A DNA stretch of 63,966 nt, the filler included, from Reclinomonas americana ATCC 50394 (Eukaryota): assembly GCA_048213135.1 (NCBI GenBank). It is 5 parts of 3 records of this genome, joined end to end, with 100 filler letters (N's around TTAATTAATTAA, not from the genome) between each part and the next. Parts side by side here need not be neighbours in the genome. Positions count along the whole stretch, not along the records: positions 1 to 27,758 come from PS015298.1; positions 27,859 to 44,248 come from PS015299.1; positions 44,349 to 52,421 come from PS015299.1; positions 52,522 to 59,478 come from PS015299.1; 1 more part is not named here. The stretch is one strand, 5' to 3'. Of this stretch, positions 44 to 59,253 are shown one piece after another. The translations under genes were made by a program, and so were the position numbers. Below the pieces are notes generated by a model. The model saw nothing but the letters and a program-made list of their open reading frames with translations. It did not search any database and was not told the origin of the DNA. Every line of letters begins with the position of its first letter. Positions within the stretch are counted from its first letter, which is position 1.

Positions 44-3000
44 TCAAAGAGGAGGAGAAGGAGGATGAGAGCAAGAGACCTCATCCTGTAAAGGTCGATG
101 TCGCAGCGACTGTTGCAGAGTCGACATTTGCATCTCGACCTCCTCTCGACGCCGCTGCTCGCGCTCCAATGCCGTGGCCATGTGCTCTAGTCGCTCTTGC
201 AGAGAGAGCACCAGTGCAGCCATCTCACCCTGTGCATGTGAGGTGCGCCCGGTTGTTGTCGCGCGTGCACTGGCAGGAACTGACAAGTGTGTCTGCAAAA
301 CGCGTTGTGTGAGCAGTGAGTGAGTGAGAGTGTGTGTGCATGTGGGCGAGCAGCTGACCGTGCTTGGTGCCTTGATGGCGTTGCGCTGCATGCTCTGCTC
401 ACCACGTTTCAATTGTTTTCAGTGTGTGTGACACAAGGACACAGCACGTCTGTCTCTGTCTCTGTCTGTTTGTGAGTCTCTCTCATCGACCTCCACTGAC
501 TACTGTCGTGGTGGTCGTGGTGGCGGCTGCAGTGGGCGAGGCCATGACGGCTTGTGAGCCGCGACGACCGCCACGCGAGCCCTTCTTGCCATTGGCAGTG
601 GTGGTGGCGGTGGGAGGTGAGGCAGGAGTGGTCGGTGAGCTGCGACGACGAGAGGCGGCTGTGGAGGAGGCGCCGCGCTTGCCTTTGCCTGTGGAGGTCG
701 GTGGCGAGGATTGCTGTGAGGCCTCGCCGTCGTCGTCGTCGCCTTCCATGCGCACGTCGGAGGCGGGAGCAGCAGCTGCAGCAGCAGTGCTGTCGTCGTC
801 AGCGGCGATGGCGGCCATCTCGCTGTCGGCTGCGGTGGAGGATGAACCAGAGGCCTCGGCAGCAGCAGCAGCAGCAGTGGCGGCAGCTGCAGCGGCGGCG
901 GCTGCGGCGGCTTCTTGCTCGAGATACGCAAAACTTGGCGGATCCGTGTGCGAGTTGGGGCAGAAGAACGCCCGGCCGATCACGAACTCGCGGCCGCGAA
1001 TCACCACTGTTGAAGGAGGAAGTGTGAGCAGGGAGATGTGGAAAGTTTCCAAACACGCGAGAATCTTGAATGCAATACAATCAACGGAGAGCAACAACGA
1101 CACTGCCGAGAAGGCAAGGAAGAGTACAACTTAACGACAGACATGACACAGGGAGGCAAGTGACGAGTGATAGACAACCAAGACAAAAAGGGTAAACGCA
1201 AGAACAGAAATGACAAATTGCACTCCATCGCTCTCTCTTTCTCTCTCTCCCTCCCTCTCTCTCTCTCTTCGACTGCGCCAGGACGAGAAAAGATCCCGAC
1301 TGCGCACGACAGACCACGACAAGGGAATAACATGCCAGCATGACGTCCGCCCGCGCATTTCTCCCCAAGTCGGTCCACNNNNNNNNNNNNNNNNNNNNNN
1401 NNNNNNNNNNNNNNNNNNNNNNNNNNNNNNNNNNNNNNNNNNNNNNNNNNNNNNNNNNNNNNNNNNNNNNNNNCGCACGATCGATATCAGGTGATTGCCG
1501 ACGAGGGCTACGCGCCATTATACTTTACCTCGTTCAAGCTGCGCCGACAGACGCTGTTCCTGGAGACACCCAGTCGACGGTCCTCTCTCTATATCATATA
1601 TAACAGATCGCGACCAATTTGACTGATTGCTTGCTGGTGCTTGTCAGATATGAGTTGTCGTTCTTGCAAGGCAGTCAGGATCCGCAAGCCGCTGCGCAGT
1701 GGTTGGATCGTGAGCGGCAAGCGTATGTGGGACGGCACCCGGGGCATGCGAGCGAGGAGAGCGGGGAGGCGGAGGATGATGAGGGATTCGTGCGACCGGC
1801 ACCGCGTGTGCCTGCGTCGCGTGGGGATCGTGTGCCAGTGTCGGGACGCAAGCTGGAGGAGCTGTACTTGTCGCAAAAGTTGGCTCGTTGCGTGCGATGT
1901 TTTCTTGCAGCACACGAGCGTCGAGAACAAGGAGGAGGAGAGATGGCTCATGCGCTGTTGTTTGTGGATTGCAGTGACTGGCGCGCGCACTGATGTGCCG
2001 TTTGGTCCGCCGCGCTCGTTTGCCAGCGAGGCGGAGCAGCAGTACAGTCTGCGTGCTGGCCTCTTCCGCTTGTCGATGGTGACGGGCCCGCTGCGAGCGG
2101 GCGCGGCACATCCGCGTGTGTCGACTCCGGCGCCGCTTGTCGGATCCGACGGGCACCTCGTAGATTCTCCGGTCTCTCCCGGCAACAGCGCCAGCAATGG
2201 CGGCGCTGCTGTTCCGAGTGCGTTCGGTGAGTGTGTGTGTGCGCGCGGGGGGAGAGTGGCATGGAAAAGAGTGGTTGCTGAACAGTCAATGACAGGGAGC
2301 CTGTGTTCGGTGCACGAATTGCCGTCGGTTCCGTCGCGCCCTGTCGACGTCAGAGTGATGGCCGACTGTCTGACGTGGGATGAGATGCAGTGGGATGACT
2401 ATTCAGGTGAGTGATGGAGGGCAAAACAANNNNNNNNNNNNNNNNNNNNNNNNNNNNNNNNNNNNNNNNNNNNNNNNNNNNNNNNNNNNNNNNNNNNNNN
2501 NNNNNNNNNNNNNNNNNNNNNNNNNNNNNNNNNNNNNNNNNNNNNNNNNNNNNNNNNNNNNNNNNNNNNNNNNNNNNNNNNNNNNNNNNNNNNNNNNNNN
2601 NNNNNNNNNNNNNNNNNNNNNNNNNNNNNNNNNNNNNNNNNNNNNNNNNNNNNNNNNNNNNNNNNNNNNNNNNNNNNNNNNNNNNNNNNNNNNNNNNNNN
2701 NNNNNNNNNNNNNNNNNNNNNNNNNNNNNNNNNNNNNNNNNNNNNNNNNNNNNNNNNNNNNNNNNNNNNNNNNNNNNNNNNNNNNNNNNNNNNNNNNNNN
2801 NNNNNNNNNNNNNNNNNNNNNNNNNNNNNNNNNNNNNNNNNNNNNNNNNNNNNNNNNNNNNNNNNNNNNNNNNNNNNNNNNNNNNNNNNNNNNNNNNNNN
2901 NNNNNNNNNNNNNNNCGTGAGAACAACAAGCCACAGAGAGGCGAGAGTGAGTGAGGCAGAGTGTGAGTGAGTGAGTGAGTGAGAGGTACCTCCAGTGAGA

Positions 3001-3473
3001 ACTTTTGCAGCGGATCGCCACTCAGAGTGAACGAGAGACTGATGTTGGGCAGGAACTTGGATCGCTGTTGTTGAAGGGAGAGAGAGAGGCAAGCAACAGA
3101 GAGACAAAAGACAGAGAGTTAGTCATGTTGTGTGTGTCTCCGATAACGGCGTGAGGGCAGACAGTGTGCGTGTGAGAGAGGGAGAGTGTGTGCAAGAGCG
3201 CGCAATGTCGCTCTTCTTCGTTTGCTTGCGCACCTCCTCCATGCGCTTGGTGAGTGCGGCCTTGCGTACGCTGTGACGCGACTGCTTCTGCGATTGCTGT
3301 TTGAGCGAGAACAACTGTGTGAGAGAGGGGGGAAAGAGAGAGAGACAAGTGTTTTCTTTACAAAGAACCTTGCGCGTGGTGCGTCCGCCCGCGGCTCCGC
3401 TGCTTCCTCCGCCGCCGCCTTGTCCTCCTCCGCCTCCAGTGGTGGCGCGCGGCTCAGCGCGTGCGCGACCCAT
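44..3473 (-). CDS. Multi-exon hypothetical protein with Ala/Ser/Thr-rich and coiled-coil C-terminal part; segment 1474-2429 probably belongs to it but is assembled inverted
   Basis: ATG at 3473 (MGRARAEP...). Exon ...DPLQKFSLE|gtacct is phase-compatible with + strand exon cag|VIADEGYAPLYF... at ~1490. Minus-strand exons at ~500-1015 and ~80-230 (LQERLEHMATALEREQRRREEVEMQM). No recognised domain. Confidence 0.45.
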
Positions 3474-4528: not shown

Positions 4529-9918
<5,390 letters not shown>

Positions 9919-9941
9919 TAAAAAAAGAAAGGTAGACGCAT

Positions 9942-12900
9942 TCATTCTCCTGCCGCCGCTGTCGTGGTCTTTGCCGAGGGCGAGGAAGGAGGCAGCAAAG
10001 CAACTGCTTCCGCTGTCCATGAACATTGAAATCCTCCACCCGGTTTCTCCACGTCGGCCAGCATGACATGGCCGAGCAGTGCGAGACCGCGTGGCTCCAC
10101 TGTCTGCTGGAACACGATACGATCGCGCGTGACACCGTCACTGGAAATCTGCAACGACAGTCAAGGAGAAAAGTCAGGAGCAGCACGAGGCGAGAGAGAC
10201 AAAGGAGATTGCGCTCCAGAGACTCAACAGTGTTGGCCGACTGCACTTCCAGTCGCACCGACCACGCCGAGGCCGACTGGCTCCTTACAGCGTACGCCAC
10301 AGAGGACGATTGTCTGTGTGGCAGCGAGGCATAAGAACAGAGATGATCGACAGCAAAGACGACGGGCTGATCGCAACGGAAGTGACAGCTGCAACACGCG
10401 AATTTCACCAGCACCGACAGCGACGGGACTGCGCACCGGCGCACCAAAGCGCTCGATGAGGCGCGCAAAAGCATCGCTGCAACCCTGCGCGAAGTCGCTG
10501 GGCGTGAGTCAATCGCTCTTATTTATTCTTCTTTCCCCGCACAAACCTTGTTCCATCGCGAGTGCTCACGCAGCTCGTGCGGCGACTGCGAGTGTACAGA
10601 CAGAACAATCGAGCGCGACGCCACGGACCGCAAACCCGCGTCGTAGCCGAGAGCATGGATGCATCGCCAGGCAAAGCCCTGCACCATATGACGAGCACAT
10701 GAGCGATCCGATCACGCACAACAACCTGCATCGAAAGCCTACCTCTCCCTGCTCGTGAACCAGCCGGCTGAAATCTGTAAGCGGGTCAGACTCTGCGACG
10801 GAACGTGATGGAAGCACGAGTGCACGCAACATTCCACCAACTCCAGGAACGTGAGGTGACCAGGTTTCTGCAGTCCATGACACTCCAAAACCGTTCGTTC
10901 CACCTCGTCCTTGGAGAGGCGCATGCCGAATCCAACTCGACACAGTTTCCGCAGCTCTGCGCACAACGGATAATGAGAATCCTGCCTCCAATATCACGTC
11001 CACTGCCACCATCACCTTCTCCATTCAGCAACTGGTCCATGTCACGGTCATACCTGTTGCAACGAAAACGGTCATTGACTTCCCTCTTTCGTTGCCACCC
11101 CCTCCTCGCCAACCAACTCACATGCAAAAGGCATCGCCCAGCAGCGAAAGCACATCGGCACTCAATCGACCGTCGTTCTCCGTCAGGCTCGCACGCACGT
11201 CCACAACGCCGGCACCCTCTGGCACTCGCAACAGGCAGCCCGACGAACTGCATCGAATCAAATCAGCGCAATTTCATGATTAACAAGCAGTGCATACTCA
11301 ACATTGGGAACAAGGCATACTGCCCCGCCTCCAGGTCCATGCACACTTGCCACTGGCGACGCAGACCGACAAAACTGCGATGCTGCGAGGCCGCACGCTG
11401 CGCCACGACAATCTCCGACTCTCCGCCGCTCGCAGAACCGGAAGCAGCGGCCTTGCGAATGATCACCAGGCCCAGATCCAGGCTGGCGCGCTGCAGTCGA
11501 GTGCCACACCTTCTGTGGTCCTCCTGATGCACTGTGACGATGACTCGACCGGCACTCTGCAGCGTGAGGTCGTACGAGGGACCCGACACCGTGCCGTTGG
11601 CCTCGCGTGCAAACAGACCCTTGCGACGCGACTCGTGCAAAGTGCTCTCCGTGCTGCGTGCAAGTCAGCGAAAGGCACAGCGTGCAAAACTTTCTACGTG
11701 AAGAACGACGCAACAAGAGCTCCAACACCGACGCAAAGTGCAACTGAAAGTCGACGAGCGACATGAGAATGTCACTTTTGGCAGTGGCGCCATAATAGTC
11801 GAGCATGTCGCGATACTCGGGCGTCCAGGTGGCCGAGTGTTTGGACCAGTCGCCGCGCCTTGACAAGCACATCAATCACGTGAGCACTGGAGAAGGAAAC
11901 ATGATGAAAGCTCGCATACCATCGTTGCGTGGACTGAGCGGCCGAAACGGTACGCAGTCGGACGAGTTTCGTGGAGGGCGGCACCTCAATCACATCCACG
12001 ACGGCGTACGGTCGCTGCTGCACAAAGTTTGCGTGCTCCACCGGTGTCGGCCCTGCATACGTAGCAGTACACAGAGCAGAGACGTAAGCACATTTGCACC
12101 TTGAGTGGCTCCGACACACTCGTGCGCACCTCGAGCAAAGGCAGCGACCACACGACTGCACAACACCGCGTCCGTGAGAGCCTCCCACAGAGCGGTGCCG
12201 TCGCCGTCGACTGGTACCATGTGTTGCCTATACGGGGCACCAGTGAGGTCCATCAGAGTGTGATGCAGGCGGCCGCCGACAAAAAGCTGGATTTGGGGAA
12301 AGGAGGAAAAGAGAAAAGAGACGTAAGCTTGTGTGAGTGACAGGCAGAGTGCATCTGGATTTTGCACCTGCGAGTATGATCCCAGCAGCTTGGCCATGGC
12401 TTTCTCCACCAGCATAGGCCACAACGCGCCAGAAACAGTTCGGCCGTGCATGGGCCCACCGCCTGGAGAGTTCACGTGCAATGAGTCACGAGCCAGCTCG
12501 ATAAAGAAGACGGAAAAAGGGCACACCTTTGAAACATGGAATAAGATCGTCCACAACCACCGTGCACGGCTCGCCATCGCGGTACAGGCGCACGTGATAA
12601 CAGCCACACTCCTGCAACGCTTGGTCCTCGCCGTTCACAAACAGTCGCTGTACGAGAGCCGGGTGCAAGCTGAGCAACGCAAGCGAGTCCTGCGATCGTG
12701 GTGACTGAGTGAGCACTCCAATCTGCCACATCACGACCGGGAGAGGAGACTCACATGCAACCAGCTGCATTCGACAACAGACCAGATAACACAAAGTCAA
12801 AAGTACGCAGGCACATGGTGAACACGCACTCGGCACGCACGACAAGTCCTCCAGATGACTGACAATATCCAGCGGCTGCCAGTGTCGCGGGAACAGAGAT

Positions 12901-14712
12901 GGCTGCCGTGCAGCTGGACCTTGGCTGGCCGTCGCAAATGTTGATGGTCTGAACCAAGCGGTCAGCACAGGCTGGGTGTGTGTGGAGCACAACAAGCAAA
13001 TTGCTCTCTCCACACCTCAACCACTGCACAAAGTGGTGAGCGGTGCGGTCGCCCAGTGCGAACTTGTTGGCCGGCCACGAGAGATCCACAAACTGGCACG
13101 CATCTTGCTGGCAAATGGCGACAATCTGCGCAAAAAGCAGAGAAGTTCAGTTGAGATCTTCTTGCGCAACACTCTTCGACGATTTTCTTTCTCTCACCTC
13201 ATCACGGTCGAGCAGCGGCCTCCATCGCATCCACACATGATTGCCGCCGCCTTCTGGCACAAAGCCCACGCTCCAGTGGCGCACCATGACAGCATCTTGG
13301 TCGCCGACCACGGGACTCGACGCCCCATACGAGTCATGGTCATCGTCGTCGGCCGACTGCACCACTCTGTTGCGCGGAAGAAATGAGCAGTTGGTACACA
13401 GCAGGATGGGAAACGTTGTGTGGCGACGCAACGAACAGAGCGGAACACAGTGCGTCTCACTGCTTGCGTCCACCACGTGCAGCGTCAGCAGTGGCGTCGC
13501 AGCAGCACCCGGCAGCAGGAGGTACGACCGCGGAAGCGATTCCTCACTGACAATTCGAAGAGCGTGAGCGATTTCCGCCAAGTCTGGCGCGAGCGGGCAC
13601 TCTCACCTCGGGAGAGCCACGTTCACCGCCATGGACAAGTCGAGCGACACTTGCAAGATAATCGGCGACACGTTGATCACATCAAAGTGGATGGCGCCCG
13701 CACCATCCACGTCGCTGCGCCTCTTCACCAGCAGCACGCCGATCGAGCTGTCGGCGCCCGAGGGCACCCACTGAACCCATCGAATACCGCCTCCTCCGCT
13801 CTCCTCCATCGTCGCCACCAATGGCAATTCACTCGCCAGCCTCAGACATGGCGCGCAAAAGACACCATCTGCATTCACGTCAACAACTTGCAAGTAAGGA
13901 GTACCGATCATGGCATGAATCACCAGCAGAGACCGGTCGCTGCCAGCAACGCATACACCGCGGCCTCCGATCGCACCACGGACACAGACGCGAGTGACTC
14001 GGGTCCACAGCCGCCCTCTCACGACAATGAGTGCACAGAAACGGTGCACTGGACGGCGTCTCCGTCACAATCGGCGACAACAGCTGTGATCGTTCGTTTC
14101 AGTCCCCTCGCTGCGTGGCTTCCCGTGTGAGACGCATAACAGACAGACTCACCACTGCATTCTCACACACACTGCAGTGACTGTAGCCGACCATTCGCAC
14201 ATGCTGCGTGCAGTGGCGACAGCTCTTTGCGGCCCAACACTGCGCACAGAATCGACTTGCCACTGTGGCTCCTCCTGCTGCTGCACTCGCCAGTGTCTCT
14301 CCACAGGCGACACACTCACGCGCAGTGGCATGAGCGTTCAACGTGAGAGGCAGGTGAGCGATGCTGCTGGAGGAGCTTCCCGCGAGACCTCCCAGTCGCT
14401 TGAGTCGCGCGAGATCAGCGCAGTCGCTACACAGGTGCTCCTGTGTGTGTGCATGAGAGTGAGTGGAGAAGGATTGCATGCGTGAGTTGAGCAAGCGACC
14501 TTGGGCACTCGTGCATGCATGGCACACTGGCGACACTGAATCACATGCCTGCTCAATGAGTGAGGTGTGAGCGATCTGGCGACTCTTTCTCTCTCTCTCT
14601 CTCTCACACACAGCGACACACACCAACACTGTCTACAGTAGAACGGGTTGCCCCATGCACGTGGAAAGCGATGACAGCCGGCACACAGCGATGCCGCACC
14701 ATCGTCGCTCAT
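9942..14712 (-). CDS. Calpain-like protein: six CxxC...CxxC knuckles, beta-rich domain, CysPc core lacking the catalytic triad, domain III with EF-hand-like insert, C-terminal domain
   Basis: Spliced motifs QFVDLSWPANKFALG...VQWLRP, YHVRLYRDGEPCTVVVDDLIP, LWPMLVEKAMAKLLGSY, LMDLTGAP, WRGDWSKHSATWT, VIVTVHQED, LEAGQYALFP, YDRDMDQLLNGEE, ALGYDAGL. ATG at 14712, TGA at 9942. Confidence 0.85.
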
Positions 14713-14773
14713 TGACTTGAAAACCGAACAAAGACTAAAGCAGAGGACACAAGACACTGTGCTGCTTTCGTTT

Positions 14774-17700: not shown

Positions 17701-20700
17701 TCGACCTCCACCAGCTCGCTGGCCAGCATGTCGAGTGGGTCGTCGACGATTTCCATCTCCGTGGCCACGGGAGCTGGCTTGCTCGCCACAATGACTTCCA
17801 CTTCTGGTGAGAGGAAAAGGGAGAGGGGAGGGAGAGGGAGAGGGAGAGGGAGATGAGGGAGAGGAGAGAGGAGAGGGAGAGGGAGGGANNNNNNNNNNNN
17901 NNNNNNNNNNNNNNNNNNNNNNNNNNNNNNNNNNNNNNNNNNNNNNNNNNNNNNNNNNNNNNNNNNNNNNNNNNNNNNNNNNNNNNNNNNNNNNNNNNNN
18001 NNNNNNNNNNNNNNNNNNNNNNNNNNNNNNNNNNNNNNNNNNNNNNNNNNNNNNNNNNNNNNNNNNNNNNNNNNNNNNNNNNNNNNNNNNNNNNNNNNNN
18101 NNNNNNNNNNNNNNNNNNNNNNNNNNNNNNNNNNNNNNNNNNNNNNNNNNNNNNNNNNNNNNNNNNNNNNNNNNNNNNNNNNNNNNNNNNNNNNNNNNNN
18201 NNNNNNNNNNNNNNNNNNNNNNNNNNNNNNNNNNNNNNNNNNNNNNNNNNNNNNNNNNNNNNNNNNNNNNNNNNNNNNNNNNNNNNNNNNNNNNNNNNNN
18301 NNNNNNNNNNNNNNNNNNNNNNNNNNNNNNNNNNNNNNNNNNNNNNNNNNNNNNNNNNNNNNNNNNNNNNNNNNNNNNNNNNNNNNNNNNNNNNNNNNNN
18401 NNNNNNNNNNNNNNNNNNNNNNNNNNNNNNNNNNNNNNNNNNNNNNNNNNNNNNNNNNNNNNNNNNNNNNNNNNNNNNNNNNNNNNNNNNNNNNNNNNNN
18501 NNNNNNNNNNNNNNNNNNNNNNNNNNNNNNNNNNNNNNNNNNNNNNNNNNNNNNNNNNNNNNNNNNNNNNNNNNNNNNNNNNNNNNNNNNNNNNNNNNNN
18601 NNNNNNNNNNNNNNNNNATCTCTTTCCCTCATTCGCAACTGCCAGAAGACGACTGCCGCGGCTGTGGAATCTTTGTCGTGCGGTTGGCCGACGCCACCGA
18701 AGAACTCGTCGAGTTCTTCGAAGACGCTGGACCGGGAAGACGCGACGAGGAGGCGCCGCCGGTGGTGGCCGTCGACGGCTGCTTGCGTGCTGATGAGGTG
18801 GCGGTGCCTGTGGCCTTGCCACCGGTGGCACTGGCGGCCACCTGCTTGCCGCCCTTGGAGGAGACAGAGGAGGCGGCGCTCTTCGGGGCGGGGGCGGTGT
18901 TCGAACGTGACGGTGCTCGGTCGGCGTCCTCGTCGCCAATGCTGGCGGAGGAGCGATTGCGTGCCGAGGTGGGGGCACTGTTGGGAGCTACTACAAGGCG
19001 ATGAGCTCGTGGGCCACAAGCTGCGAAAAAAATGAAGCAGAACAAACAACTCACCAGACTCGGAGGCCTTCTTGCGCGCATTGACCAGGTCGGCGACGGG
19101 CACCGGCAGACGAGACTCCGGCAGCGAGGGAATCGGCGGTACATCGGCGGCCACTGTACCCAGCACGACGGCCGACACGGGTGTGGCGGCAAGTGAGCGT
19201 CGTCGTGCCGGAGTGCTCTTCGGTCCAGGAATCCGCGAAGCTCTCACCGCTGCACCACCACTTGCCGGCGACACAGTGTCCTCTCCTTCTTCCTCCTCCT
19301 CCTCGTCGTCGTCCTCACCCACATCCATATCACTGTCAAAATCGATGTCTTCGTCGTCGTCGTCGTCATCGTCGTCCTTCTTGGCGGCAGCGGCCTTTTT
19401 GTCGGCCACTGCGCGTGCCTCTACTTCGCTTTCGTCCTCGTCGTTGTCGAGGTACGTCTTGGGCGGCCGTGCTGCCGCCTGTGGTACGGTGGAGACGGCA
19501 GACACTGTCGGTGCCGGCAGCATGGGCGATGGTGGCTTGGGCGTGTTGGAGAGCGCAGGCAAAATGCTCTCATCGACGGCGGCAGGCTCCTTTGGTGGGG
19601 CCTGAGGCGCCGGTGGCAACGGAGGCAGCACGGGTGCCACTACGGCCGCGACAGGGGCCGGTGGCAATGCCGGAAGCGCCGGTGGCGGTTGTGAGGGCAG
19701 CGCTGGTGGTGCTGCTACTACTGCTACAGGTGGTGCTGCTGGTGGTGGTGGTGAATCGTTCTCATCGGCGACCACTGCCGCTCCGCCACCTTCGCGTGCA
19801 CCAGCAGCACCAGCAGCAGCACCAGCATCGTCATCATCCTCCTCTTCGTCATCCGACGGGAAACCAATGTCACTCGACAGTGGCGACTCTTGATTGCCGG
19901 GTGTCACGGCGGCGCCGGCGTCGCTGCCCTTGAGTTTGGAGTGCTGGACGGCGACCGCCAGCAAGTCGCCGAGTCGCTCAACGCTACGTGGCGTATGCGG
20001 CGCACCGGCGTCGGCGGCGGACAGTCCGCGAGGGGTGTTTTGCGCCGACTGCGCCTGGCGCGGCGTGGTGCCACTGAGTGGTGGCAGCGCAGGCAGCGGC
20101 TCGCCCGTGGTGTCGTCGGTGGTGCGTCTCCGTGGCGACACGTGCACGACACGAGATGCGCCCGCCGACTGCGCAACAGCCTGCAGTCCGACCAGTGGGG
20201 GCACCGACACAGCGGCGGCATCGGTGGCCGGCAACAACGACGGCATCTCCGTGGGTGGACGAGGTGATTCTCCTGGTTGTTGCTGTTGGGGCGTGGGCGC
20301 GCGGACCACACGCACGGTGCGAGCGGCGGCCACCTACAGCACGGATAATGAGCGATGAAGCGAAAGGAGGAGGACCAAGTGGAAACGCAACAGAGCGACC
20401 AGGCGTCGGTGGGAGGCTGGATGGTGAGGCTGGGATGGCTGATCCCGCCGCGGCGGTGAGTTGGGTGGCGGTGTCCACGGTTGGTGCGGCGGCGGCAGAG
20501 GCAGTGGCGGCGGTGGCAGAGGCGGTCTCCTCGACCAGCTGGGTGGGTGGGAGGAGGGTGAGGGAGAGGGGAGAGGGGAGAGGGGAGAGGGAGAGGGAGA
20601 GGGAGAGGGAGAGGGAGAGGACGGAAGAGCGAGAGGCAAGATAAGCGGATGAGAGACAAGGACGAAAGCGACGGATGCAGGAGAAACACAGTGACAAACA

Positions 20701-20730
20701 GACGAACGAACAGCGACTACGAGGGTGATA

Positions 20731-20784
<54 letters not shown>

Positions 20785-22927: not shown

Positions 22928-22980
<53 letters not shown>

Positions 22981-26700: not shown

Positions 26701-27802
26701 AGAAGACACAACACAGAGGAAAGGGCGGAAGGAGAGAAGAGAAGCAACAGGAACAAGGATACAACAAAGGGAATCAACTCGTGGTCAACGCAACGCAGTA
26801 ACAGAAGAAGGACAAGGAGAGAGAGGATGCCATACACAGACAACAAGCCACGACAGTGATAATAGCGATACAGACATGGAACTGAGCAACAACACACAAA
26901 CAAAGACTCGATCCCGCGGAACTACTCCCTGGTCAACGCAAGTGAGGCAAACACGACAAGAGTCGAGGCAATACAAGCACACAGTATGCTTGACCAACAC
27001 AAAAGGCAGCAGAGCGAGCGACACAGTTGAAGTGAGGCGAAATGAAAACAGAGAGCCGACGGGCAGTGACACAAGCGACCAAAGACAAGGAGAGGAGACA
27101 AAATATAACATGGATAACAAGCCACAACAGTTGACAACAGTTGACATGGAGGCCTGAGTAACCATACAATAACAGATGTGGCTGCTCATGAACAACGCAA
27201 CGCAGCAACAGGAAGGAAACGAAGCGAAACAAGACAAGGAGAGAGTAGACGAAAACACAATTGCAGACATCACAAACGCATTCTCTTGGTCAACACAGCT
27301 GCAGCGAAGCAAAACCAGACAACGAGAGAGGAGATGATCACAAACTCGCCACCAGGAAACAACTCTTGATCAACTCAAACACAGACAGGTTTGCAACATC
27401 CCGGGCCTTCCCGCTCCCACTCACCCTTCTCTCGCCCACCATCGACGCCGACACCACTCGATCTCTCCTCCCGGGCGCCCCACTCGCACTGTGCGACCGA
27501 GTCACCGCCGCAGATGCACTCCCACTCGATCCCGAAGCAGCAACACCACCACCAGCAGCAGGCGATCTGACTGGCAACGGGGGCGGCAGAACGCTCTCCG
27601 CCGGCAGCTTAGTCTTCAGTGGCAAGCGCAGAGCCGAGGCGCTGTGTGTGCGTGGAAGCCGTCGCGAGGTCGACGAGATGCGCAGGGAGCCAACTGCTGA
27701 AAGGCAATGGGCGATCGTCAAGGATCAAATCCGTTGTTTTTTTAAGTCATCAGTGTGTNNNNNNNNNNNNNNNNNNNNNNNNNNNNNNNNNNNNNNNNNN
27801 NN

Positions 27803-27814
27803 TTAATTAATTAA
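27803..27814. other. Artificial six-frame stop linker TTAATTAATTAA in an N-run (also at 44293-44304, 52466-52477, 59523-59534)
   Basis: Identical palindromic 12-mer flanked by equal N-runs at four sites; a standard contig-concatenation spacer. Confidence 0.97.
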
Positions 27815-27876
27815 NNNNNNNNNNNNNNNNNNNNNNNNNNNNNNNNNNNNNNNNNNNNGCAGGGAGAGAGAGAGAG

Positions 27877-32731: not shown

Positions 32732-35397
32732 TCAGGCCTTCACGCGGTCGATGAGCTCCTGTGTGAATTCGGTGCAGGTGGCCTTGCCGCCGAGATCGCC
32801 GGTGCGGATCTTGCCTTCGACGAGGACCGAGTGCACGGCGTTTTCGATGCGGGCGGCATGCTCGCGCAGGTTCAGGTGCTGCAGCATCATCACGCCGCTG
32901 AGCAGCAGGGCTGTGGGGTTTGCTCTGTGGTGCACACCAAGCACAGACACATCCCGAGTTATGCTTGTGGAGAGGCAAAAGGCAAGGGAGACTGACGCAA
33001 CTTGTTCTTCCCGGCAATGTCGGGAGCGGAGCCGTGGACGGCCTCGAAGAGCGATGCGTGGATGCCGTAGTTGCCGGATGGTGTCAAGCCCAGGCCGCCC
33101 ACGAGGCCGGCGCACAGGTCGCTGACGATGTCTGCATGAAGGGAAAGGTGTGGAGGGAAAGGGGGGAAAGGGGGGAAATGAGGAAAGCAAACTTCTAATG
33201 CCAGTCACTCATAAACTGTCAGTTGCACGTCGTTTCTCTGTCTGCCAATACTTTCGTGCGCTCAAAGGTTCCCGCCAACTCGATTCTCTGTCCTTTTGAT
33301 ATGGTTTCTCTCTTGAAAAGTGTTCCACTCTGTCAGCTGCACGTCGTTCCTCTTTCCAGCTGATACAATCGTACTTTCTCAATACCCTACTCGCTCCTCA
33401 TCCCGCTCATTCCCCTCGAGCAACGTAATCGTACTCTCTCAGCTGCACGCCAACTCGATTCTCTGTCCGTTTAATACGTTCCACTAATGTAAAATTGGCA
33501 CCCTCTCAGTTGCACTTCGACACGTTTCTGTCCTTCCTCACGTGTTGTGCTCGTATACTCTCTGTGGCACTTTGTGTTGGTCTTCTACTGTCTATTTACA
33601 CATCTCTACGATTTCTCTCAGCGTATTCTTGGTTGTTTCTCAGTCTGGTTGACACATTTCGACAATGTATTCTCTTAGTTGTACGTTACCGTTCCTCTGT
33701 ATAGTTGGCATTTAGCCCGTCTGCATTCTCTCTCTCGCTCACTCGCTCTCTTATCCCTCTTCTTCTTCCTCTCTCTTTCTCACTCTCATACTGTTGCCTC
33801 ACCTCCGAATACAAGCACTTGTTTGTTCTTCTGCCTCTCTCTCTCCCTCCCCTCTGTCTCCTGCAATCTCATCCTTCTTCTCCTTCCATCCCCCTCCCTC
33901 CCACATTCTCGTGGCGTCGCCTCACCTCCGTACAAATTCGGCAGCACCATCACATCAAAGCTCTCCGGATTGCGGACCAGCTGCGCATCACAAAAAAAGG
34001 GTGAGTGACGGCCTCCTCCTGCACACACTCCTCACACACTACCACCAGCACACCTGCATGCATGCGGCGTCGACAATGACTTCGTTGTACTCAATGTCGG
34101 GATACTTGGAGGCAATCTCGCGGGTGCATTTGAGGAAGAGACCGTCGCTGAGCTTCATGATGTTGGCCTGTGTGCGCGGTGATGTGAGCTCTCTGGCCTT
34201 CTCTCCCCGTCCTCCCTCTCCCACCAACCTTGTGAATGGCGGTGACCTTTGCACGTCCGTTCTGCCGTGCGTACTGGAACGCATACTCGGCCACACGCGT
34301 CGATGCCGTGCGCGTGATAATCTTGAGCGACTCCACCACGCCCGGTACCACCTCGTGCTCCAGACCCGAATACTCGCCCTCTGTGTTCTCTCGAATGACC
34401 ACCGTGTTCACGTGCTCGTAGTCTGCGCGCAGCGCGGCGAGTCAGTTCTTATTTTCTGAGCTTCTCCTCCCCTCACCCCCCCAGGTCGACGCAACTCGTC
34501 TTGATGCCCGGCAGCGTCTTGGCCGGTCGCACATTGGCGAACAGGCCGAGCTCCTTGCGCAGCGTGAGATTCAGCGAGCGGAAGCCCTTGCCGATTGGAG
34601 TGGCCATGGGTCCTGTGCAGCGCGCGCGAGTGTGAGACAGGGGAGAGGGAGAAAAAAGGGAGAAGAGGCTCACCCTTCAGTGCCACCTTGTTGCGGCGCA
34701 CCGACTCAATGGCCTCGTCGGAGACCAGCACGCCGGTGCGGTCGGCGGCCTCGGCGCCAATGGAGTAGGGTTCCTGGGGTGAGAGGGAGGAAGGGTGAGG
34801 GAGGAAATGAGAGAAGGAAACGAAGAGGCAGGGGGAGGAAGGAGGAAGGAAGGAAGGAGGACGAAGGAGAGGATGGCGAAAGGGGGCAATGGTTGAGCAA
34901 GAACAATGAGAGATGGCGTGTAAGGAAGAGGGGAATGGAAAGGAGACAGAAGCGATCAAGACGACGTGGAGTGAGAAGGAGAGTGGAGGAGAGGAGACAG
35001 AAGTGATCAAGAAGAGGAAGAGGATGATGAAGAAGGGGGACAACAATGATGAGAGGCGGCGAGTGAGGAGGAAGGATGCGGGGTTGGAGCAGGAGAAGAA
35101 GAAGAGAAAGAGGAGGTGGAGGACAAAGGAGAGGAGATGAAGGAGGAGGGAGGAGAAGGTGGATGGAAGAGAAAGAGGATGATGAAACACGGGTAGATTG
35201 TTGAGCATGCATAATGAGAGACGGCGAGTGAGAAGGAAGGATACAGTGTCGGCGTGGGGAAGTGAGGAGGGCTGTTGACAACGAAGCAGGCAGCTCACCC
35301 ATTCAACGGGGACCTTGGCGGCCTCAAAAATGCGCTGCACGCTCTCGGTGATCTCCGGTCCAATGCCATCGCCGGCGAACAGCGACACTCGGTGGAT
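32732..35397 (-). CDS. IDH3A: Mitochondrial NAD-dependent isocitrate dehydrogenase, catalytic (alpha-type) subunit; first exon(s) missing
   Basis: Eight spliced exons: [76 protein letters not shown] (D..SD of catalytic subunits), [32 protein letters not shown] at 32732. Confidence 0.95.
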
Positions 35398-38911: not shown

Positions 38912-38986
<75 letters not shown>

Positions 38987-39122
38987 ACCCTACCTGCATA
39001 TAACCCAGCCTTCCCCCTTGCCGTTCCCCCGTCCCGCTTCCCCCATTTACCCCTTTCCCCCTTCCCCCTTTCCCCCCTTCCCCCCCTTGCCTTTCCCCCT
39101 TTCCCCCTTCTCCCACGCCCAG

Positions 39123-42100
39123 GACCTCCTCCTCCGCTGCGCCCGCGAGGGCACACACCGCCTGTGCAGCCTGTTGGTGGCGCAGGGTGTCGCCCTCGAA
39201 GGCAAGAGCGAGCGCGGCGAGACGGCGCTGCAGGTGGCGTGCCGATGCGGCCACTTGAGTGTGGTGCGCATTCTGCACCAGCGCGGCGCTCGCCTTGATG
39301 TGGTCGACGACGAGGGCAGTTCTCCGCTGCACGCCGCCTCGGCCTGTCCCTCCGGCACCAATGTCGTGCAGTACTTGCTGGACCGCAACTGCGTGATTGC
39401 GAAGGTCTGTCTACATGCTGCCTCCTTCCTGCACTCGCACTCTTTTCACTCCCGTCGCAGAATAGTGCCGGTCGCACGGCCTTGTACGCCGCCTGCGAGC
39501 GTGGCAATCTGCGTGCCGCGCGACTGCTGCTCGAGGCCGGCGCCTCGGTCACGGATCTCGATTCGCAGTACATTACGCCGTTGCATGTGGCGTGCTCGAG
39601 TGGACGCCTGCAAGTGGTGCAGTTGCTGCTCGACAATGGCGCCTACATGGACGCCAAGTCGACGTACGGCGTCACTCCGCTGCACTTGGCTGCGCATTCG
39701 CCGCACACGCACTGCTTGTGCCTGCTGCTCGATGCAGGCGCGTCGGCGGCTGAAAAGGCCAAGGACGGCAAGACGCCGCTGCACTGGGCCGCGCACGCCT
39801 CCCGCCTGAAGAATGTTTTGCATTTGCTGTTGCGTGGCGCGTCGCCGTTCGACATGGACGCCAAGGGTCGGCATCCGGTGGAACTGGCGCACGATGGCGA
39901 AGTGATTCGCGTGCTCAAGAGTTTCGTTGATTCTTCTTCTGGGAAAGAAACAGCGCTTGCTCACCATGGATCGATGCACGTGCAGTTCACATGTCGCTGT
40001 GTCGCCGCGTGGATACAAAGGAGCTCGTGTACGCCTTTGTGCAGGGCGAGTTGTCGCGGCTCCAGCTGGTGAAAGATCTCAAGCAGACGCAGCGGGAGCT
40101 GAAGGAGCGGAAGAGCGAATGCCGTGTGCTGGTTTGTCAGGATGAGGAAGCTCCTTCTCACTCCCTCTCGTTTCCACCAGTTTCCCCTTCGTGTTCACTC
40201 GTTTCCTCTCGTTTCCACTCGGTTCCTCTCGCTTCCACTCGTTTTCTCTCATTTCCACTCGTTTCCTCTCGTTTTCCACTCGTTTCCTCTCGTTTCCTCT
40301 CGTCTCCTCTCGTCCCCACTCGTTTCCTCTCGTTTTCCACTCGTTTCCTCTCGTTTCCCACTCGTTTCCTCTCGTTTTCCACTCGTTTCCTCTCGTTTTC
40401 CACTCGTTTCCTCTCGTTTTCCACTCGTTTCCTCTCGTTTTCCACTCGTTTCCTCTCGTTTTCCACTCGTTTCCTCTCGTTTTCCACTCGTTTCCTCTCG
40501 TTTTCCACTCGTTTCCTCTCGTTTTCCACTCGTTTCTCCTCGTTTCCCCTTGTTTCCTCTCGTTCGCACTCGTTTCCCCTCGTTTCCCCTCGTTTCCTCT
40601 CGTTCGCACTCGTTTCCCCTCGTTTCCTCTCGTTCGCACTCGTTTCCCCTCGTTTCCTCTCGTTCGCACTCGTTTCCCCTCGTTTCCTCTCGTTTCCACT
40701 CGTTTCCTCTCGTTTCCACTCGCTTCCTCTCGTTTCCTCTCGTCTTTCTCGTCTTCCTTCCCTTCCCCTTCCCTCCCTTCTCCCTTCTCCCTCATTCTCC
40801 CTTTCCTCACTCACAGCGAGACGAACTGCGAGCGATCCGCATGTTCGAGACCGACAGGGCGGCGAAACAGCGCGAGGTTCATCGCATTCTGTCTCTCACC
40901 CTCACGCGTATCTCTCAGCTTGCATTAACGCGGCTGCATGGCAGGTGGTCATCGTGCGCGAGTTCCGCTCAGTCAGTCATCTCTTGTCGGCTCCCGATTT
41001 CTCGGTGCGAGCGCGCTCATGTCACGTGCTCAACACGCACTTGCGAAGAGGTGTGTGGCGCTCGTGACATTCCGCCTCCTCTCCTCAAATCGTTTGTCTC
41101 ACTGTGCGTGCGCAGGTGTAATGTCCAAGGACATTTTGCGTGTGCACTCGGCGGCACCCGCTGTCGTGGAGCTACTGCAGACACCGCCAAGCTTGCAATG
41201 TGTTGTCGACGTGCTTTCCGTGTTGGCCATTTGCTGCGATGATGGTGCGTCTTGGGTGAAGTGCGGCAAAGGGAGTGATCTGACCTGTTGTTTGTTGGAT
41301 ACTCGCTCAGCCGACACGGGAATGGCGGTGGCTCGTAGCGGTGGCGTGCGCATCGTGCTGGAGTTTGCTGTCTCGTCGCCAGAGAGCTTGGTGAGTGGTG
41401 TGGGTTGCAGTGATGGTTTTTTGAATGTCTATTTCAATCTCTAAACATTGCATCATCCTTCGTGCCTTTCTCGCCCTCTTTTCTCCCTCTCTCATTCACT
41501 CCCTCTGTTTGGTTTTCCTTCCCATTCTGCCACCTCACCCTCATTCTCCTCCATACAGGGCCAATTGTCGTCGCTGGCCGAGACTGTAGGTTTGGAGGAT
41601 GACCTGGTCCTCCTTCCCGGCGCCTTCAAGAGCAGCGTGGCGATTCCCGGTGGTGCAGTGGAAGCCGTGCGGTTTGCCGCGTGGTCACTGGCAAAGATGC
41701 TGCACGGTGGTGCGTCTGCTTGTCTTTCTCTTGCTTCTCTGGGCTTCTTCTTCTCACTGTCAATTATGCAGCCTGCGCCACTGCACCTCGCGAGCTGATT
41801 GCCGAGTACCTGTCGGAGGAGGACGTGATGCACATATTGCAGGCCGTGAAACGAGTGCAGATGCATTCCCTGCTGCCGCTGCTGTGGGTCCTGGTGCTCT
41901 GCGTGGAAAATCGTGAGTGGTGTCCCTTCCCCTCTCCCTGCCCGCCCTATGTGCATGTCGCCAACTTTCACTACGCAACAGCGGCATACGCCCTGCTCAT
42001 CATGACGGACTCCGACATTGGTGCACTGCTGCCGCTGCTATTTGAGGAGAATCGACTGGCTGCCGACGGTTCTCTCTCGCCGCCGCTGCCGCGTGGACCT

Positions 42101-44140
42101 TCGGTTCTCGCCACCACAGCACAGTTGCTGCAGTCGTCGACACCATCTGCTCGGTGCGTACGTGTTCATCGCAGCCTGTCACCGCAGTGGCGTCTCTCAC
42201 TGCGCCATCACGCAGCTCCGGCGACCTCGACAGTTTCAATCATTCTGTGCGCACCTTCTGGTCACAGGTGTACGAGGCCTGTGGCGGCACCAACGCGCAG
42301 AGTGCCATTGTGCAATCGGCACTTCGCACCGCAATCCTCTACCTGTGGAGCATGTGCGATGGAGATGGTAGGCATCGATTGCATTCGTGCCAGTGTTTGG
42401 CACGCATGCTCACTCACCCCTCCTTATCACCCTCGTCAAGCTCTTCGACAGGCCACGTCGGCCCACATGCTCAACTTGCTCAACGAGGCCTCGCTCAACA
42501 TTTGCTCGTTGCAATCGCGACTCGCCTTTTACGCACTGGACAAGATTCTGAAGCAAAGTTGCGTGCGTTCATCGGTCTTCTTCATTTCTCCGTGTCCACC
42601 GTCTTCTTTAGCCACTATTTCTCGGTTCCACGTTTCCGCATTTCTTCGTCGTTGAGCACTCATTGCAGCGTCTTTCCTCTCTCTTTCTCACTTTCTTACT
42701 CTCTTTCTGCTTTCATCTGCATTCTGTCTGCTGCCCATCTCCTCCCCAGCTCCTCCCCGTCCCTTTCTCGTCTCAACTCGTGTCCTTCCGTCTCCTTCGC
42801 GTCTCCTTCGCGTCTCCTTCGCGTCTCCTTCGCGTCTCCTTCGCGTCTCCCTCCCGTCTCCTCCCATCTCCTCCCGTCTCCTCCCATCTCCTCCCGTCTC
42901 CTACCCGTCTCCTTCCCATCTCCTTCCCATCTCCGCTCATTTGTCTCCCTTTCCCTGAATAATAGACTCGGCCGCCCACTACTGGTGTCGCCACTACGTG
43001 GACTTTGACGTCAAGATTGGCAACGGATTCTTCGACATTGGGCGCTCGGCCGAGTACCGCCACATTTCGCATTTTTTGCGCTTGCCACCGGACGACGGAC
43101 GCGAAATCCTCTACGTGTGCACCGAGGGCGACGACAAGGACATGGCGCTGGAATCGTGCATCAAGGAGTGCATTCAGACCATCAGTACGCGTTACGAGAG
43201 TGCAACACTGGAGAAGAAGGTTCGCGCCATTGCCGAGTACGTCGTGGAGCGCATGGGCGGACCGTTGCGTGCGATTGTTGGATATCTGCATCTGAATGTC
43301 TGCCTCACTCCTCCCCTTCTTTCCACTAGTGCCGGTCGACTGATTCCGACTCAATTCTATGAGCACGTGCGCGAACTGAAGCGCAAGTCGGGCAGCAATG
43401 TGTTGCGTGCCCGTCGTCGCACGTCACGCAATTCAGTCATCTTCATCCTCACTGTATCCTCACCGGCAGTGTTCGCTTGGGAGACTTGCGCATTGGTGTC
43501 TGCCGTCACCGCTCGGTGCTATTCAAGTTGTTGGCCGATTGCTGCGGCGTGCCATGCCGCCTTGTGAGGTGCATTGTTCGAGAACACTCTCAACCCCTCC
43601 ACATCTCTCATCTCGCACACAGAGGCACGCATGGCGGCAGCGACGACAACTGGCACGTGTGGAACGTGGTCAAGTTGCAGGTGCAAGACAGTGGATTTGT
43701 GTGGGACCGCTACGTGGTGGTCGACTTGATGTGCGCCGACAGGTAATTCCCGTGGCACTGATGATTTGCCACTCGATTATCACTCGCTGACTGTGGTGAC
43801 GCCGCAGGTATGCATGTTACGAGGAGGGCTCAGAAGCTGCCGAGGAATACAAGCGCATGGATGGTGGCTCCATTGGTGGTGTGTCGATTCAAGGCCACCT
43901 CAAGCTGCGGCGCAAGGAGCTCGTGGACATTGGTCAGCTGGGCAAGTCGGCGAATCAGGTGATTCATGTAGAAGCCACGGTGTTGCATCAACAACATCAT
44001 CATCCTCACGACGAGTCCTGCAGGTGTTTGCCGTGCGACACGTTGTCACGAACGAGGTGCTGGCGGTGAAGCGTGTGCTCCTCGATCCGGAGAGCTTGTA
44101 CCGAAAGCAGGCGGCGCAGCGTGAGCTGGAGATTTTCCGG
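39123..44140 (+). CDS. Ankyrin repeat - coiled coil - ARM-like - EDR1/CTR1/ARMC3 peptidase-like domain - protein kinase (truncated at linker)
   Basis: About eight ankyrin repeats (GETALQVAC, GSSPLHAA, TPLHVAC, GVTPLHLAA, GKTPLHWAA). EDR1-type motifs AAHYW...KIGNGFFDIG, VVERMGG, SNVVRLGDLRIGVCRHRSVLFKLLAD...PCRLVRG, HVWNVV, VVDLM. Kinase start VFAVRH...LAVKRV...RELEIF. Confidence 0.85.
40165..40745 (+). repeat. Intronic 21-nt minisatellite (ctcgttttccactcgtttcct)n built from 10/11-mers
   Basis: Directly visible; explains the FPLVSSR/ETRGNE pseudo-ORFs. Confidence 0.92.
42788..42925 (+). repeat. Intronic 11-nt tandem repeat (cgtctccttcg)n and variants
   Basis: Directly visible. Confidence 0.85.
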
Positions 44141-44214
44141 TGTGTGTTGAATCGCATCGCGTTCATCTCTCTCTTTCTCTCTCCCTTCCTCTCGCTCTCC
44201 CTCGCTTCCTCTTG

Positions 44215-44245
<31 letters not shown>

Positions 44246-44348
44246 TCCNNNNNNNNNNNNNNNNNNNNNNNNNNNNNNNNNNNNNNNNNNNNTTAATTAA
44301 TTAANNNNNNNNNNNNNNNNNNNNNNNNNNNNNNNNNNNNNNNNNNNN

Positions 44349-57720: not shown

Positions 57721-57807
57721 GCACCCATTCTTTCCCTCTCCCCTTATCTCCCACCCTCTCACTCTCAATCCCAATTCTCAAAGAGACCCTCCACCGCCGG
57801 CGACATG

Positions 57808-59253
57808 TCACCCACATGCTGCGCGCCGACCGTGTCCGACGCCGCCGCCAGACCCCGACGCGCCTCGGCCTTGCTCAGCAGGCTGCACGACGAGATGATG
57901 AGAGCTACATTTACAAATCAGCGCCGATATATTCAAAAGACGCACCTGAAACAAAGCGCCTTTGGACGCTCGGCAGACTTGCGCGTGATCTCCACCATGA
58001 CGCTGCGGGAAAATGATGAGATGCAATTGTGTGCACAGACCGTGGTGGATTGATGTACGCAACTGCATAAACGGAGACAGCACCTCGACCTCATCGGCCG
58101 CGAGCGTCAACTTCATCTGCCCCGTCTCCTCGACGTAGTCATACCGCGTGATCCACGCCATGTCCTCAATGAACACTTGGCCCTCCAACCCAAGATCCTC
58201 CGAGGCGACCTTGATGCTGCTCTTTCGCACCTCGCTGATAACCTGTCGAGCAAGGGTGTGAGCAACAAAACGTCACACAGAGAGGAAGTATCCAGGCGTG
58301 GACGCAACGAAAATGGCTCGCACAGGGCGAGTTCCCACCAGCAACCACAGGAACAGTTCGGAGCTCTCGTCCTGCGCACCGCGTGCACCCTGCTTCTTCT
58401 CGTTGGCATGGTCGGCAATCTGCATGCACGCACATATCAGCTTCATCGTCGCATACGTACGAACACACTCACTGCCTCCGCACCGCAGTGACTGTGGAGC
58501 AGGCAAACATGTTGGGCAATGGCCGTTCAACAGTGCACGCCAAGCTGTCTAGCGCCCACTGCAACATGCGATGTACGGTGACATCCGGGAACCTTTCCAA
58601 CATCTCACAAGTCAGACCACCACCCTCACCGGTTGCACATGCACACACACTCACCGACGAATGGGACTGGTGAAATGCGTGTAATACGGCACATTAAGCG
58701 CGTAGTGATGCCACTGATCCAGCGGCAGATCCTGCGTCGAAAAGTACAACGCCCGCTGCATCGTGCACGTCGCCAGGAGCTCGAGCACCATGGCGAGCGT
58801 CTTGGAACCGGTGGCGTCCTCACGGACGCGTTGCAGACTGCGATGCACTTCGCCGGCCGACTTTGCCGCGAACTCGATATGGCGATCTGCACAGAACTTC
58901 AGGAACTCGGCCATCTTTTTCGGATTCGGCGGAGCGTGTCGGCGCAAGAGTGCACTCTAACCGAGAAGCGATAAGTGTGTGCTGAGAGCGGCTCCGAACA
59001 TGATTTACAACACTCACCTCTCCCGCATGCTGCGAGATGAACTTGCCGACCAGCAGGTTGGCGGCCAACATATACTCCTCGACGAGCGAGTTGGCCTCGC
59101 GAATGTAGTACGGCTGCACGCTCAGCGGCATGTTGGTGGCGCGGTCCAAGGCAAAGTAGTACTTTTGGCGATTCAAACTCAGCGAGCCAGTTTCGTAGCG
59201 CAGCTTGCGACGCGCGGCCGCCACCTCGTGCATGAGGAGAATGTCGTCGCAGA
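57808..59253 (-). CDS. DIS3L2: RNB/RNase II-family 3'-5' exoribonuclease, DIS3L2-like (3' part; 5' exons lost at linker; exact stop uncertain)
   Basis: [76 protein letters not shown]...AQDESSELFL, and a C-terminal S1-like segment. Confidence 0.85.

Follow-up and report, generated by a model that had tools for sequence, protein, structure and literature searches.

Background

Human 5' splice sites (donors) whose pairing with U1 small nuclear RNA (snRNA) is shifted by one position were reportedly described by Roca and Krainer in 2009, and those read in a bulge +2/+3 register are said to have been described by Roca et al. in 2012. Here we examine a class of donors of the forms GTTGCGT, GTTGAGT and GTTTCGT in a stretch of 63,966 bases from the assembly GCA_048213135.1 of Reclinomonas americana ATCC 50394 (the window, by which we mean the whole stretch of DNA that was analysed), for which an original prediction had listed 19 introns starting with a usual donor plus one extra T after GT and had proposed a shifted register, or a variant U1/U6 snRNA, as the way in which they are read. 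Both the shifted (+1) and the bulge (+2/+3) registers are established for rare human 5' splice sites, according to passages of PMC4856993, and Table 3 of that source gives 68 predicted +2/+3 and 51 predicted +3 bulge registers among 201,541 5' splice sites. Human displaced-register sites amount to well under 0.1% and were proven one by one.

The donors in the window resemble the human shifted-register sites, as presented in those passages, in that they start GU-initiated U2-type introns that are cut at the first GU, carry the block that would pair with U1 one position deeper, and have a U at +3 and their G at +6 in place of +5. They differ in their core, which is GCGU here and of the AAGU type in the rare human sites, and in their frequency, with seven of 19 homology-fixed introns belonging to the class, whose abundance roughly equals that of its unshifted counterpart. 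The class is far commoner in the window than its human parallel. As with human bulge +2/+3 sites, the sequence may be written as GU-(U)-core, a single U being bulged, but the G at -1 that this register would favour is absent. The green alga Micromonas has the canonical donor AG/GTGCGT (PMC3879977; the slash marks the cut throughout) and shares with the window the GCGT core, a CTGAC-type branch motif and a GC-rich genome, whereas the passages concerned describe neither an inserted T nor a depletion of G at -1, and the introns here, of about 60-75 nucleotides (nt), are far more numerous. U12-type introns likewise form a second, tightly conserved donor class beside a degenerate major class, but their donor and branch consensus are unrelated to the sequences found here, where the 3' halves are indistinguishable from those of ordinary introns. 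A literature search within a limited full-text collection found no lineage reported with abundant GTT-type donors, which does not prove that there is none.

Homology places the cut at the first GT

Proteins were aligned to the genome with a splice-neutral aligner (BLOSUM62; GT-AG introns, in the last run also GC-AG introns, of 40-900 nt; a flat penalty and no donor or acceptor matrix), using as queries 12 homologues of beta-amylase and 12 of NAD-isocitrate dehydrogenase (NAD-IDH). The aligner fixed 19 introns, seven of the GTT class and 12 ordinary ones. At all seven testable GTT-class sites cleavage falls at the first GT, as predicted, with 7-12 of the 12 homologues in agreement at each site. 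The GC three bases downstream (+4), which had been named as the competing cut site, was chosen by no homologue at the seven sites tested, and a GC donor at that position is ruled out by the alignments in which GC donors were allowed. The seven introns are U2-type GT-AG introns that start with GT, end with AG and restore the conserved frame when removed, and none of them has a second in-frame GT at +6:

7411..7471 (+), beta-amylase intron of 61 nt, C/GTTGCGT, phase 1 (MSF-H-TSGGNVGD), 9 of 12 homologues
8646..8707 (+), beta-amylase intron of 62 nt, A/GTTGCGT, phase 2 (RYPSY-Q-LRNN), 9 of 12 homologues with GT only and 7 of 12 with GT and GC
9000..9061 (+), beta-amylase intron of 62 nt, C/GTTGCGT, phase 1 (FYL-Q-WYS), 12 of 12 homologues
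9167..9239 (+), beta-amylase intron of 73 nt, C/GTTGCGT, phase 1 (GI-H-WWY), 11 of 12 homologues
9265..9328 (+), beta-amylase intron of 64 nt, A/GTTTCGT, phase 2 (DH-H-AAELTAG), 11 of 12 homologues
34423..34495 (-), NAD-IDH intron of 73 nt, A/GTTGCGT, phase 1, 12 of 12 homologues and 5 of 5 in an earlier run
32925..33001 (-), NAD-IDH intron of 77 nt, A/GTTGCGT, phase 2 (GKN-K-ANPTALL), 12 of 12 homologues and 5 of 5 in an earlier run

The conserved motifs MSF-H, GI-H-WWY, H-H-AAELTAG and GKN-K-ANP, which had been cited as fixing the cut, are recreated by it in the alignments. For another such motif, SN-V-VRLG at 43402 (+), the intron forms a frame-consistent pair with the one at 43264 (+), but no homologue match fixes the cut. 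The dissenting homologues at 8646, with GC donors allowed, are three that take a GT 6 nt upstream, which would delete the conserved Y of RYPSY, and two that take a GC at 8664. The exon upstream of the intron at 9000 (8810-8998) aligns to residues 224-284 of PDB 8j5d_A.

The 12 ordinary introns of the same two genes serve as the comparison. Those of beta-amylase lie within 7149..9733 and are supported by 7-12 of 12 homologues, except the one at 7550 (2 of 12), which adjoins a block of N; those of NAD-IDH lie within 33132..35298, all follow G and are supported by 12 of 12 homologues each:

7149 (+), ordinary beta-amylase donor, G/GTGCGC
7279 (+), ordinary beta-amylase donor, C/GTGCGT
7550 (+), ordinary beta-amylase donor, A/GTGCGT
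8748 (+), ordinary beta-amylase donor, G/GTGCGT
9387 (+), ordinary beta-amylase donor, G/GTTGGT
9522 (+), ordinary beta-amylase donor, C/GTGCGT
9670 (+), ordinary beta-amylase donor, G/GTTTGT
35298 (-), ordinary NAD-IDH donor, G/GTGAGC (intron of 525 nt)
34673 (-), ordinary NAD-IDH donor, G/GTGAGC
34228 (-), ordinary NAD-IDH donor, G/GTTGGT
34053 (-), ordinary NAD-IDH donor, G/GTGTGC
33925 (-), ordinary NAD-IDH donor, G/GTGAGG (intron of 794 nt)

Judged from genomic sequence and homology, the GTT class is real and cut at the first GT, with independent support for these seven sites, and most of the other sites are plausible. Searches for further anchors gave little: protein homologue searches with one beta-amylase exon and one EDR1-like exon returned no match, Pfam on 102 open reading frame (ORF) fragments from the calpain, RNB and EDR1 regions yielded too few anchored exons for further junctions, and PDB searches with two RNB C-terminal exons returned nothing usable.

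Two side observations concern these introns. At 8646-8714 (+) the intron starts with GTTGCG and the next exon with ATTGCG, and the protein would be unchanged by a non-canonical cut 7 bases later at each end; this end-match is the sole such case among 19 short GTT-type introns compared and is probably a coincidence. The phases of the seven homology-fixed introns are 1, 2, 1, 1, 2, 1 and 2, with no phase 0, as against five of 12 ordinary introns in phase 0; a further candidate at 58308 (-), listed below, would be in phase 0, and the numbers are too small for the difference to be interpreted.

A donor class distinct from ordinary donors

A direct check of the sequence confirmed that all 19 predicted coordinates hold the motif on the given strand (14 GTTGCGT, one GTTGCGA at 10377 on the minus strand, two GTTGAGT and two GTTTCGT), that all 19 are without G at +5 and that none follows an exonic G. 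Among the homology-fixed donors, all 12 ordinary sites have G at position +5, and all seven GTT-class sites have C there, followed in every case by G at +6 and T at +7. This split between the classes at +5 and +6/+7 cannot arise from independent position frequencies. The complete shifted pattern (U at +3, a base other than G at +5, then G and U at +6 and +7) is found in 18 of the 19 listed sites, the one at 10377 having A at +7, and in all seven homology-fixed ones. The inserted base is only ever T: when GT-N-GCGT copies with downstream 3' signals are counted, T gives 12 of 32, A 0 of 1, C 0 of 13 and G 0 of 21. The core is also tighter than that of ordinary donors, with GCGT in 21 of 24 GTT-class donors.

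The remainder of the intron shows no such difference. The homology-fixed GTT-class introns are 61-77 nt long and their 3' halves are like those of ordinary introns; all 17 introns inspected end in YAG, with a CTSAY-like motif 10-30 nt upstream in most, and a strict branch motif missed three of the seven homology-fixed GTT-class introns. U12-type introns have an RTATCCTT donor and a TCCTTRAY branch, which the donors and 3' ends of the inspected introns do not fit. An introner or other transposon-borne origin was likewise rejected, as no 8-mers beyond low complexity are shared among the introns, and so was target-site duplication, with matches between intron start and next exon, and between exon end and intron end, no higher than in ordinary introns.

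The two classes also differ in the base before the cut. G stands at -1 in none of the seven GTT-class donors as compared with nine of the 12 ordinary homology-fixed donors (Fisher p = 0.003), and in none of the 32 copies of GTTGCGT on both strands as compared with 12 of the 57 copies of GTGCGT anywhere in the window (p = 0.003). It precedes one of 49 copies of the three heptamers taken together and none of 24 GTT-class donors. The accompanying claim that ordinary donors often follow G is true in part. Ordinary donors with weak cores do so in nine of nine cases, the after-G donors being of the GTGAGC, GTGAGG, GTGTGC, GTGCGC, GTTGGT and GTTTGT types together with one GTGCGT; the bases before the three remaining GTGCGT donors are C, A and C. 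Strong cores that do not need G at -1 may explain part of the effect.

Frequency of the class in the window

The GTT class makes up about a fifth to a third of the introns in the window, in keeping with the sizeable minority that had been predicted. The upper figure comes from the homology-fixed introns (7 of 19). In the final ab initio parse, with both donor types allowed, GTTNNGT starts 20 of 115 introns, a count that is only indicative since the parse is unreliable, having the class built into its donor model and a bonus for G at -1 in ordinary donors. This parse recovers 14 of 17 homology-fixed introns with the class allowed and 11 of 17 without it. Earlier codon models, with a flat or a self-trained donor, failed the beta-amylase control and were not used for conclusions.

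Independently of reading frame, no GT-heptamer is more enriched than GTTGCGT in the interval 52-85 nt upstream of acceptor-like sites, with 12 of its 32 copies so placed as compared with 392 of 7112 (5.5%) for all GT (binomial p = 6e-8). A branch motif and YAG lie downstream of 12 copies of GTTGCGT and of 13 copies of GTGCGT. The plain copy number of GTTGCGT is hardly above the maximal-order Markov expectation (32 against 24.7), and in a loose census of 3' signals that compared GTNNGT with GTTNNGT, GT microsatellites drowned out any contrast. Beyond the window, a metagenome scan with an NAD-IDH exon returned 80 loci, the best at 81% identity, and among the nine of these 80 that were inspected none had the donor class or looked like a close relative.

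If true, a genome in which about one fifth to one third of the introns have a displaced architecture would be a natural experiment on how splice sites are read, bearing on cut position as against U1/U6 pairing and on the trade-off between exon-side and intron-side pairing. Gene finders that use a single donor matrix would misannotate such genomes, and frameshifts or mistakes spanning one to a few codons would result. Our own parse found 11 of the 17 introns without the class and 14 with it.

U1 register and alternative readings

A +1 shifted U1 register is, in our assessment, the best single explanation of the class, and we give it a probability of roughly 0.5. In sequence, these 5' splice sites look like the usual intronic core of the host, which is (T)GCGT or in fewer cases GAGT or TCGT, moved one nucleotide away from the cut, as GT-T-GCGT instead of GT-GCGT. 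Under the shifted reading the UGCGU core would be recognised, most probably by U1 snRNA through its 5' end, in the way it is on ordinary donors, so that G+1 would sit in place of G-1, opposite C9 of U1, and U+3 would pair with A7; the cut would be set afterwards on GU by U6, U5 and Prp8. Loss of the exon-side pair would be offset by the tightness of the core (GCGT in 21 of 24). Pairing of U+3 with A7 of U1 would account for the restriction of the inserted base to T.

Pairing was modelled for 12 GTT-class donors with the textbook U1 5' end, which may not be that of the host. The canonical register gives 0.0 kcal/mol in 12 of 12, and the shifted register is below zero in six of 12, with a best value of -2.7 kcal/mol.

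Several results weigh against the shifted register. All registers in this model are weak (0 to -2.7 kcal/mol), and the shifted one is better than the bulged one in three of 12 donors and equal to it in nine. The ordinary donors C/GTGCGT and A/GTGCGT themselves reach only about -1.4 kcal/mol, as against -4.5 to -10.2 for donors after G, so that modelled U1 pairing fails to explain donor strength here. Were the register shifted, position -1 of the GTT class would be expected to correspond to position -2 of ordinary donors, and this equivalence is not clearly seen (G in 0 of 24 against 4 of 12), the lack of G being stronger than such a model predicts. When local sequence context is taken into account, that lack is only marginal, with a probability of 0.06-0.15 for 0 of 19 and of 0.009-0.04 for 0 of 32. 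Twelve of the 19 predicted sites are without independent proof, and a single 64-kb window with 6326 N is the whole data basis. The proposal that G+1 stands in for the missing G-1 fits the pattern (inserted T, G at +6 and T at +7, no G at -1) and finds no backing in the -1/-2 comparison or in the weak pairing model. Either proteins and U6/U5 contribute far more to donor recognition here, or the U1 of the host differs.

A further reading, which we put forward tentatively and hold to be doubtful, is that two spacings between cleavage and the snRNA-read core (UGCGU) are in routine use, in about one third and two thirds of introns. If this were true, either U1 or U6 would have diverged or the catalytic core would tolerate an offset of one nucleotide, a tolerance that would cover both U1 binding and the helix of the U6 ACAGAGA with the 5' splice site near the active site; the window would then come from a natural system in which the place of U1 binding and the place of the cut are uncoupled genome-wide.

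U1 might instead keep its normal register while one U, at +2 or +3, bulges out, which would leave G+1 opposite C8 and C9 free for the last exon base. This register is validated in human sites (passages of PMC4856993), it ties with the shifted one in nine of 12 donors under the textbook U1, and with two U's side by side the bulge has no unique position, which could explain an insertion of T only. Yet it never does better than the shifted register in that model, and under it a G at -1 ought to be advantageous, as in ordinary donors, through the additional G-C pair, whereas G is seen there in 0 of 7, 0 of 24 and 0 of 32 cases; we consider it unlikely.

A variant host U1 (or U6), complementary to the UGCGU core or perhaps to GUUGCGU, would make one class a perfect match and the other a displaced one, and it is conceivable within this reading that there are two U1 variants, one for each class. 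The textbook U1 pairs almost nowhere with GUUGCGU and gives about -1.4 kcal/mol with GUGCGU in the absence of G at -1, both strings are strongly conserved and about equally frequent as donors, and the core is much tighter than would be expected of mostly mismatched pairing. Against a variant, eukaryotic U1 hardly varies at its 5' end, and we know of no variant U1 in green algae with an AG/GTGCGT donor such as Micromonas. Algae with that consensus do exist (Micromonas; passages of PMC3879977), and a U1 complementary to CAG/GUUGCGU would itself favour the G at -1 that is absent here; we hold a variant snRNA to be quite unlikely. An Rfam search of the window gave no matches at gathering score, and thus no U1 or U6 gene within it.

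It could also be that the class is real and that its never following G carries no mechanistic meaning, with strong cores free of selection at -1 and GGTT rare. GGTT is under-represented across the window, which bears on any claim about the base before GTT-type donors, and because of this depletion background composition accounts for part of the lack of G at -1: on both strands G precedes 13.6% of GTT, 11.3% of GTTG and 8.4% of GTTGC occurrences, as compared with 23.8% of GTG. With these rates 0 of 19 is hardly surprising, copies of GTTGCGT that show no signs of being donors also have no G at -1, and three of the four homology-fixed GTGCGT donors follow a base other than G. The contrast of 0 of 32 with 12 of 57 and the context probability of 0.009-0.04 for the 32 copies speak against an absence without meaning, and the context rates themselves contain donor copies; we regard this reading as very improbable.

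Other members of the GTT class

The 12 predicted sites other than the seven homology-fixed ones differ in the signals around them. Two, in the EDR1/CTR1-like peptidase gene, are jointly frame-consistent between two Pfam-anchored exons, as established by coordinate arithmetic, and have a branch motif and YAG and a place in the final parse:

43264..43329 (+), probable intron of 66 nt, C/GTTGCGTGCG, in the EDR1/CTR1-like peptidase domain
43402..43469 (+), probable intron of 68 nt, T/GTTGCGTGCC (SN-V-VRLG)

Four have a branch-like motif and YAG 54-85 nt downstream:

39921..39985 (+), probable intron of 65 nt, A/GTTTCGT, in the ankyrin-repeat gene, with 3' signals and present in all parses including that with a flat donor
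58003..58063 (-), probable intron of 61 nt, A/GTTGCGT, in the C-terminal part of the RNB (DIS3-like) gene, with 3' signals and present in parses
10775..10830 (-), possible intron of 56 nt, T/GTTGCGTGCA, in an unnamed gene, from 3' signals, with several frames open
10149..10228 (-), possible intron of 80 nt, T/GTTGAGT, from 3' signals, with several frames open

The other six combine the donor string with weak or atypical 3' signals:

1887..1893 (+), putative donor, C/GTTGCGTGCG, with its best acceptor 88 nt downstream and many frames open
4888..4894 (+), putative donor, T/GTTGAGT, with its sole frame-open acceptor at 109 nt and weak 3' signals
42558..42564 (+), putative donor, A/GTTGCGTGCGT, with an ordinary GTGCGT starting 5 nt downstream (42563)
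10371..10377 (-), putative donor, C/GTTGCGA, with weak 3' signals
28766..28772 (-), putative donor, T/GTTGCGTGCG, with an AG at 64 nt that has no branch-like motif before it
28941..28947 (-), putative donor, A/GTTGCGT, with weak 3' signals at 64 nt

In five of the unproven sites, which read GTTGCGTGC(G/A), a second, ordinary-looking GT, which frame by itself would also allow, lies 5 bases downstream (1887 and 42558 on the plus strand, 28772 on the minus strand, 43264 on the plus strand and 10830 on the minus strand), and 43402 (+), read as GTTGCGTGCC, likewise carries one. At 42558 the parses conflict, with 42563 taken in two of them and 42558, with an intron of 408 nt, in the final one. That some unproven GTTGCGTGCG-type sites are misassigned, with a GTGCG(T) 5 bases downstream as the real donor and hence fewer than 19 sites in the class, draws on these five of 12 sites, on the two parses at 42558 and on the widely open frames of GC-rich DNA, but it would leave the seven homology-fixed sites and their lack of a second in-frame GT at +6 untouched, 43264 and 43402 are jointly frame-consistent only with their first GTs and obvious acceptors, and we consider it highly improbable.

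Beyond the 19 sites, six further candidates were found, one of them GTTTCGT at 62447 (+); the others, four GTTGCGT and one GTTGAGT, are the following:

58243..58308 (-), candidate intron of 66 nt, C/GTTGCGT, phase 0, in the RNB gene (RAIF/VISEV), with 3' signals and in the final parse
11654..11714 (-), candidate intron of 61 nt, T/GTTGCGT, at the end of the calpain catalytic domain, with 3' signals and in all parses including that with a flat donor
13367..13432 (-), candidate intron of 66 nt, C/GTTGCGT, in the calpain gene, with 3' signals and in the final parse
20334..20391 (-), candidate intron of 58 nt, T/GTTGCGT, with 3' signals and in parses
11248..11302 (-), candidate intron of 55 nt, T/GTTGAGT, with 3' signals and in the final parse

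Genes and other features of the window

The window comprises 63,966 bases, of which 6,326 are N in 22 blocks; apart from the N its G+C content is about 58%, and runs of (TC)n and (CA)n are numerous. Pairs of N blocks (2 x 44 bases with a 12-base spacer) lie at 27759-27858, 44249-44348, 52422-52521 and 59479-59578, with several 20-base N blocks elsewhere, and these blocks look like masking rather than assembly gaps. The following genes were recognised from Pfam and long ORFs, except the last, which was recognised from translated ORFs and not from Pfam:

7.0-9.9 kb (+), beta-amylase gene
11-14 kb (-), calpain gene
Rgp1 gene
32.7-35.3 kb (-), NAD-isocitrate dehydrogenase gene
39-44 kb (+), gene with ankyrin repeats and an EDR1/CTR1-like peptidase
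57.7-59.5 kb (-), RNB (DIS3-like) gene
leucine-rich repeat gene

All the named genes are broken up by many short introns, which mostly measure 55-80 nt and have YAG acceptors and branch motifs of the CTSAY type. Among named proteins, the beta-amylase is nearest to those of Polytomella, Haematococcus and Prasinoderma, and the NAD-IDH to those of trebouxiophytes and chlorophytes. By base composition, gene structure and protein similarity, the host is evidently a GC-rich, intron-rich eukaryote whose beta-amylase and NAD-IDH are closest to green-algal proteins.

The NAD-IDH gene contains two long introns, of 794 nt (33132-33925, minus strand) and 525 nt (34774-35298, minus strand), both with G/GTGAG donors, while its other introns measure 61-77 nt. 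In the RNB gene, the intron at 58594-58654 (-), which follows SPIRR, has an ordinary G/GTGAGT donor and, judged by eye, an AAG acceptor with a purine at -3, which is unusual here, where 17 of 17 inspected introns end in YAG. Finally, at 45594-52420 (-) two very long open frames of 1240 and 742 amino acids, almost without introns, encode a coiled-coil-like protein rich in Q, E, A and L; they hold near-identical tandem units with a spacing of 54-150 bp, mostly 75 or 150, seen as repeated GTTGCGCCTT on the opposite strand at 49.4-50.9 kb, and these repeat frames dominated and biased the first codon model.

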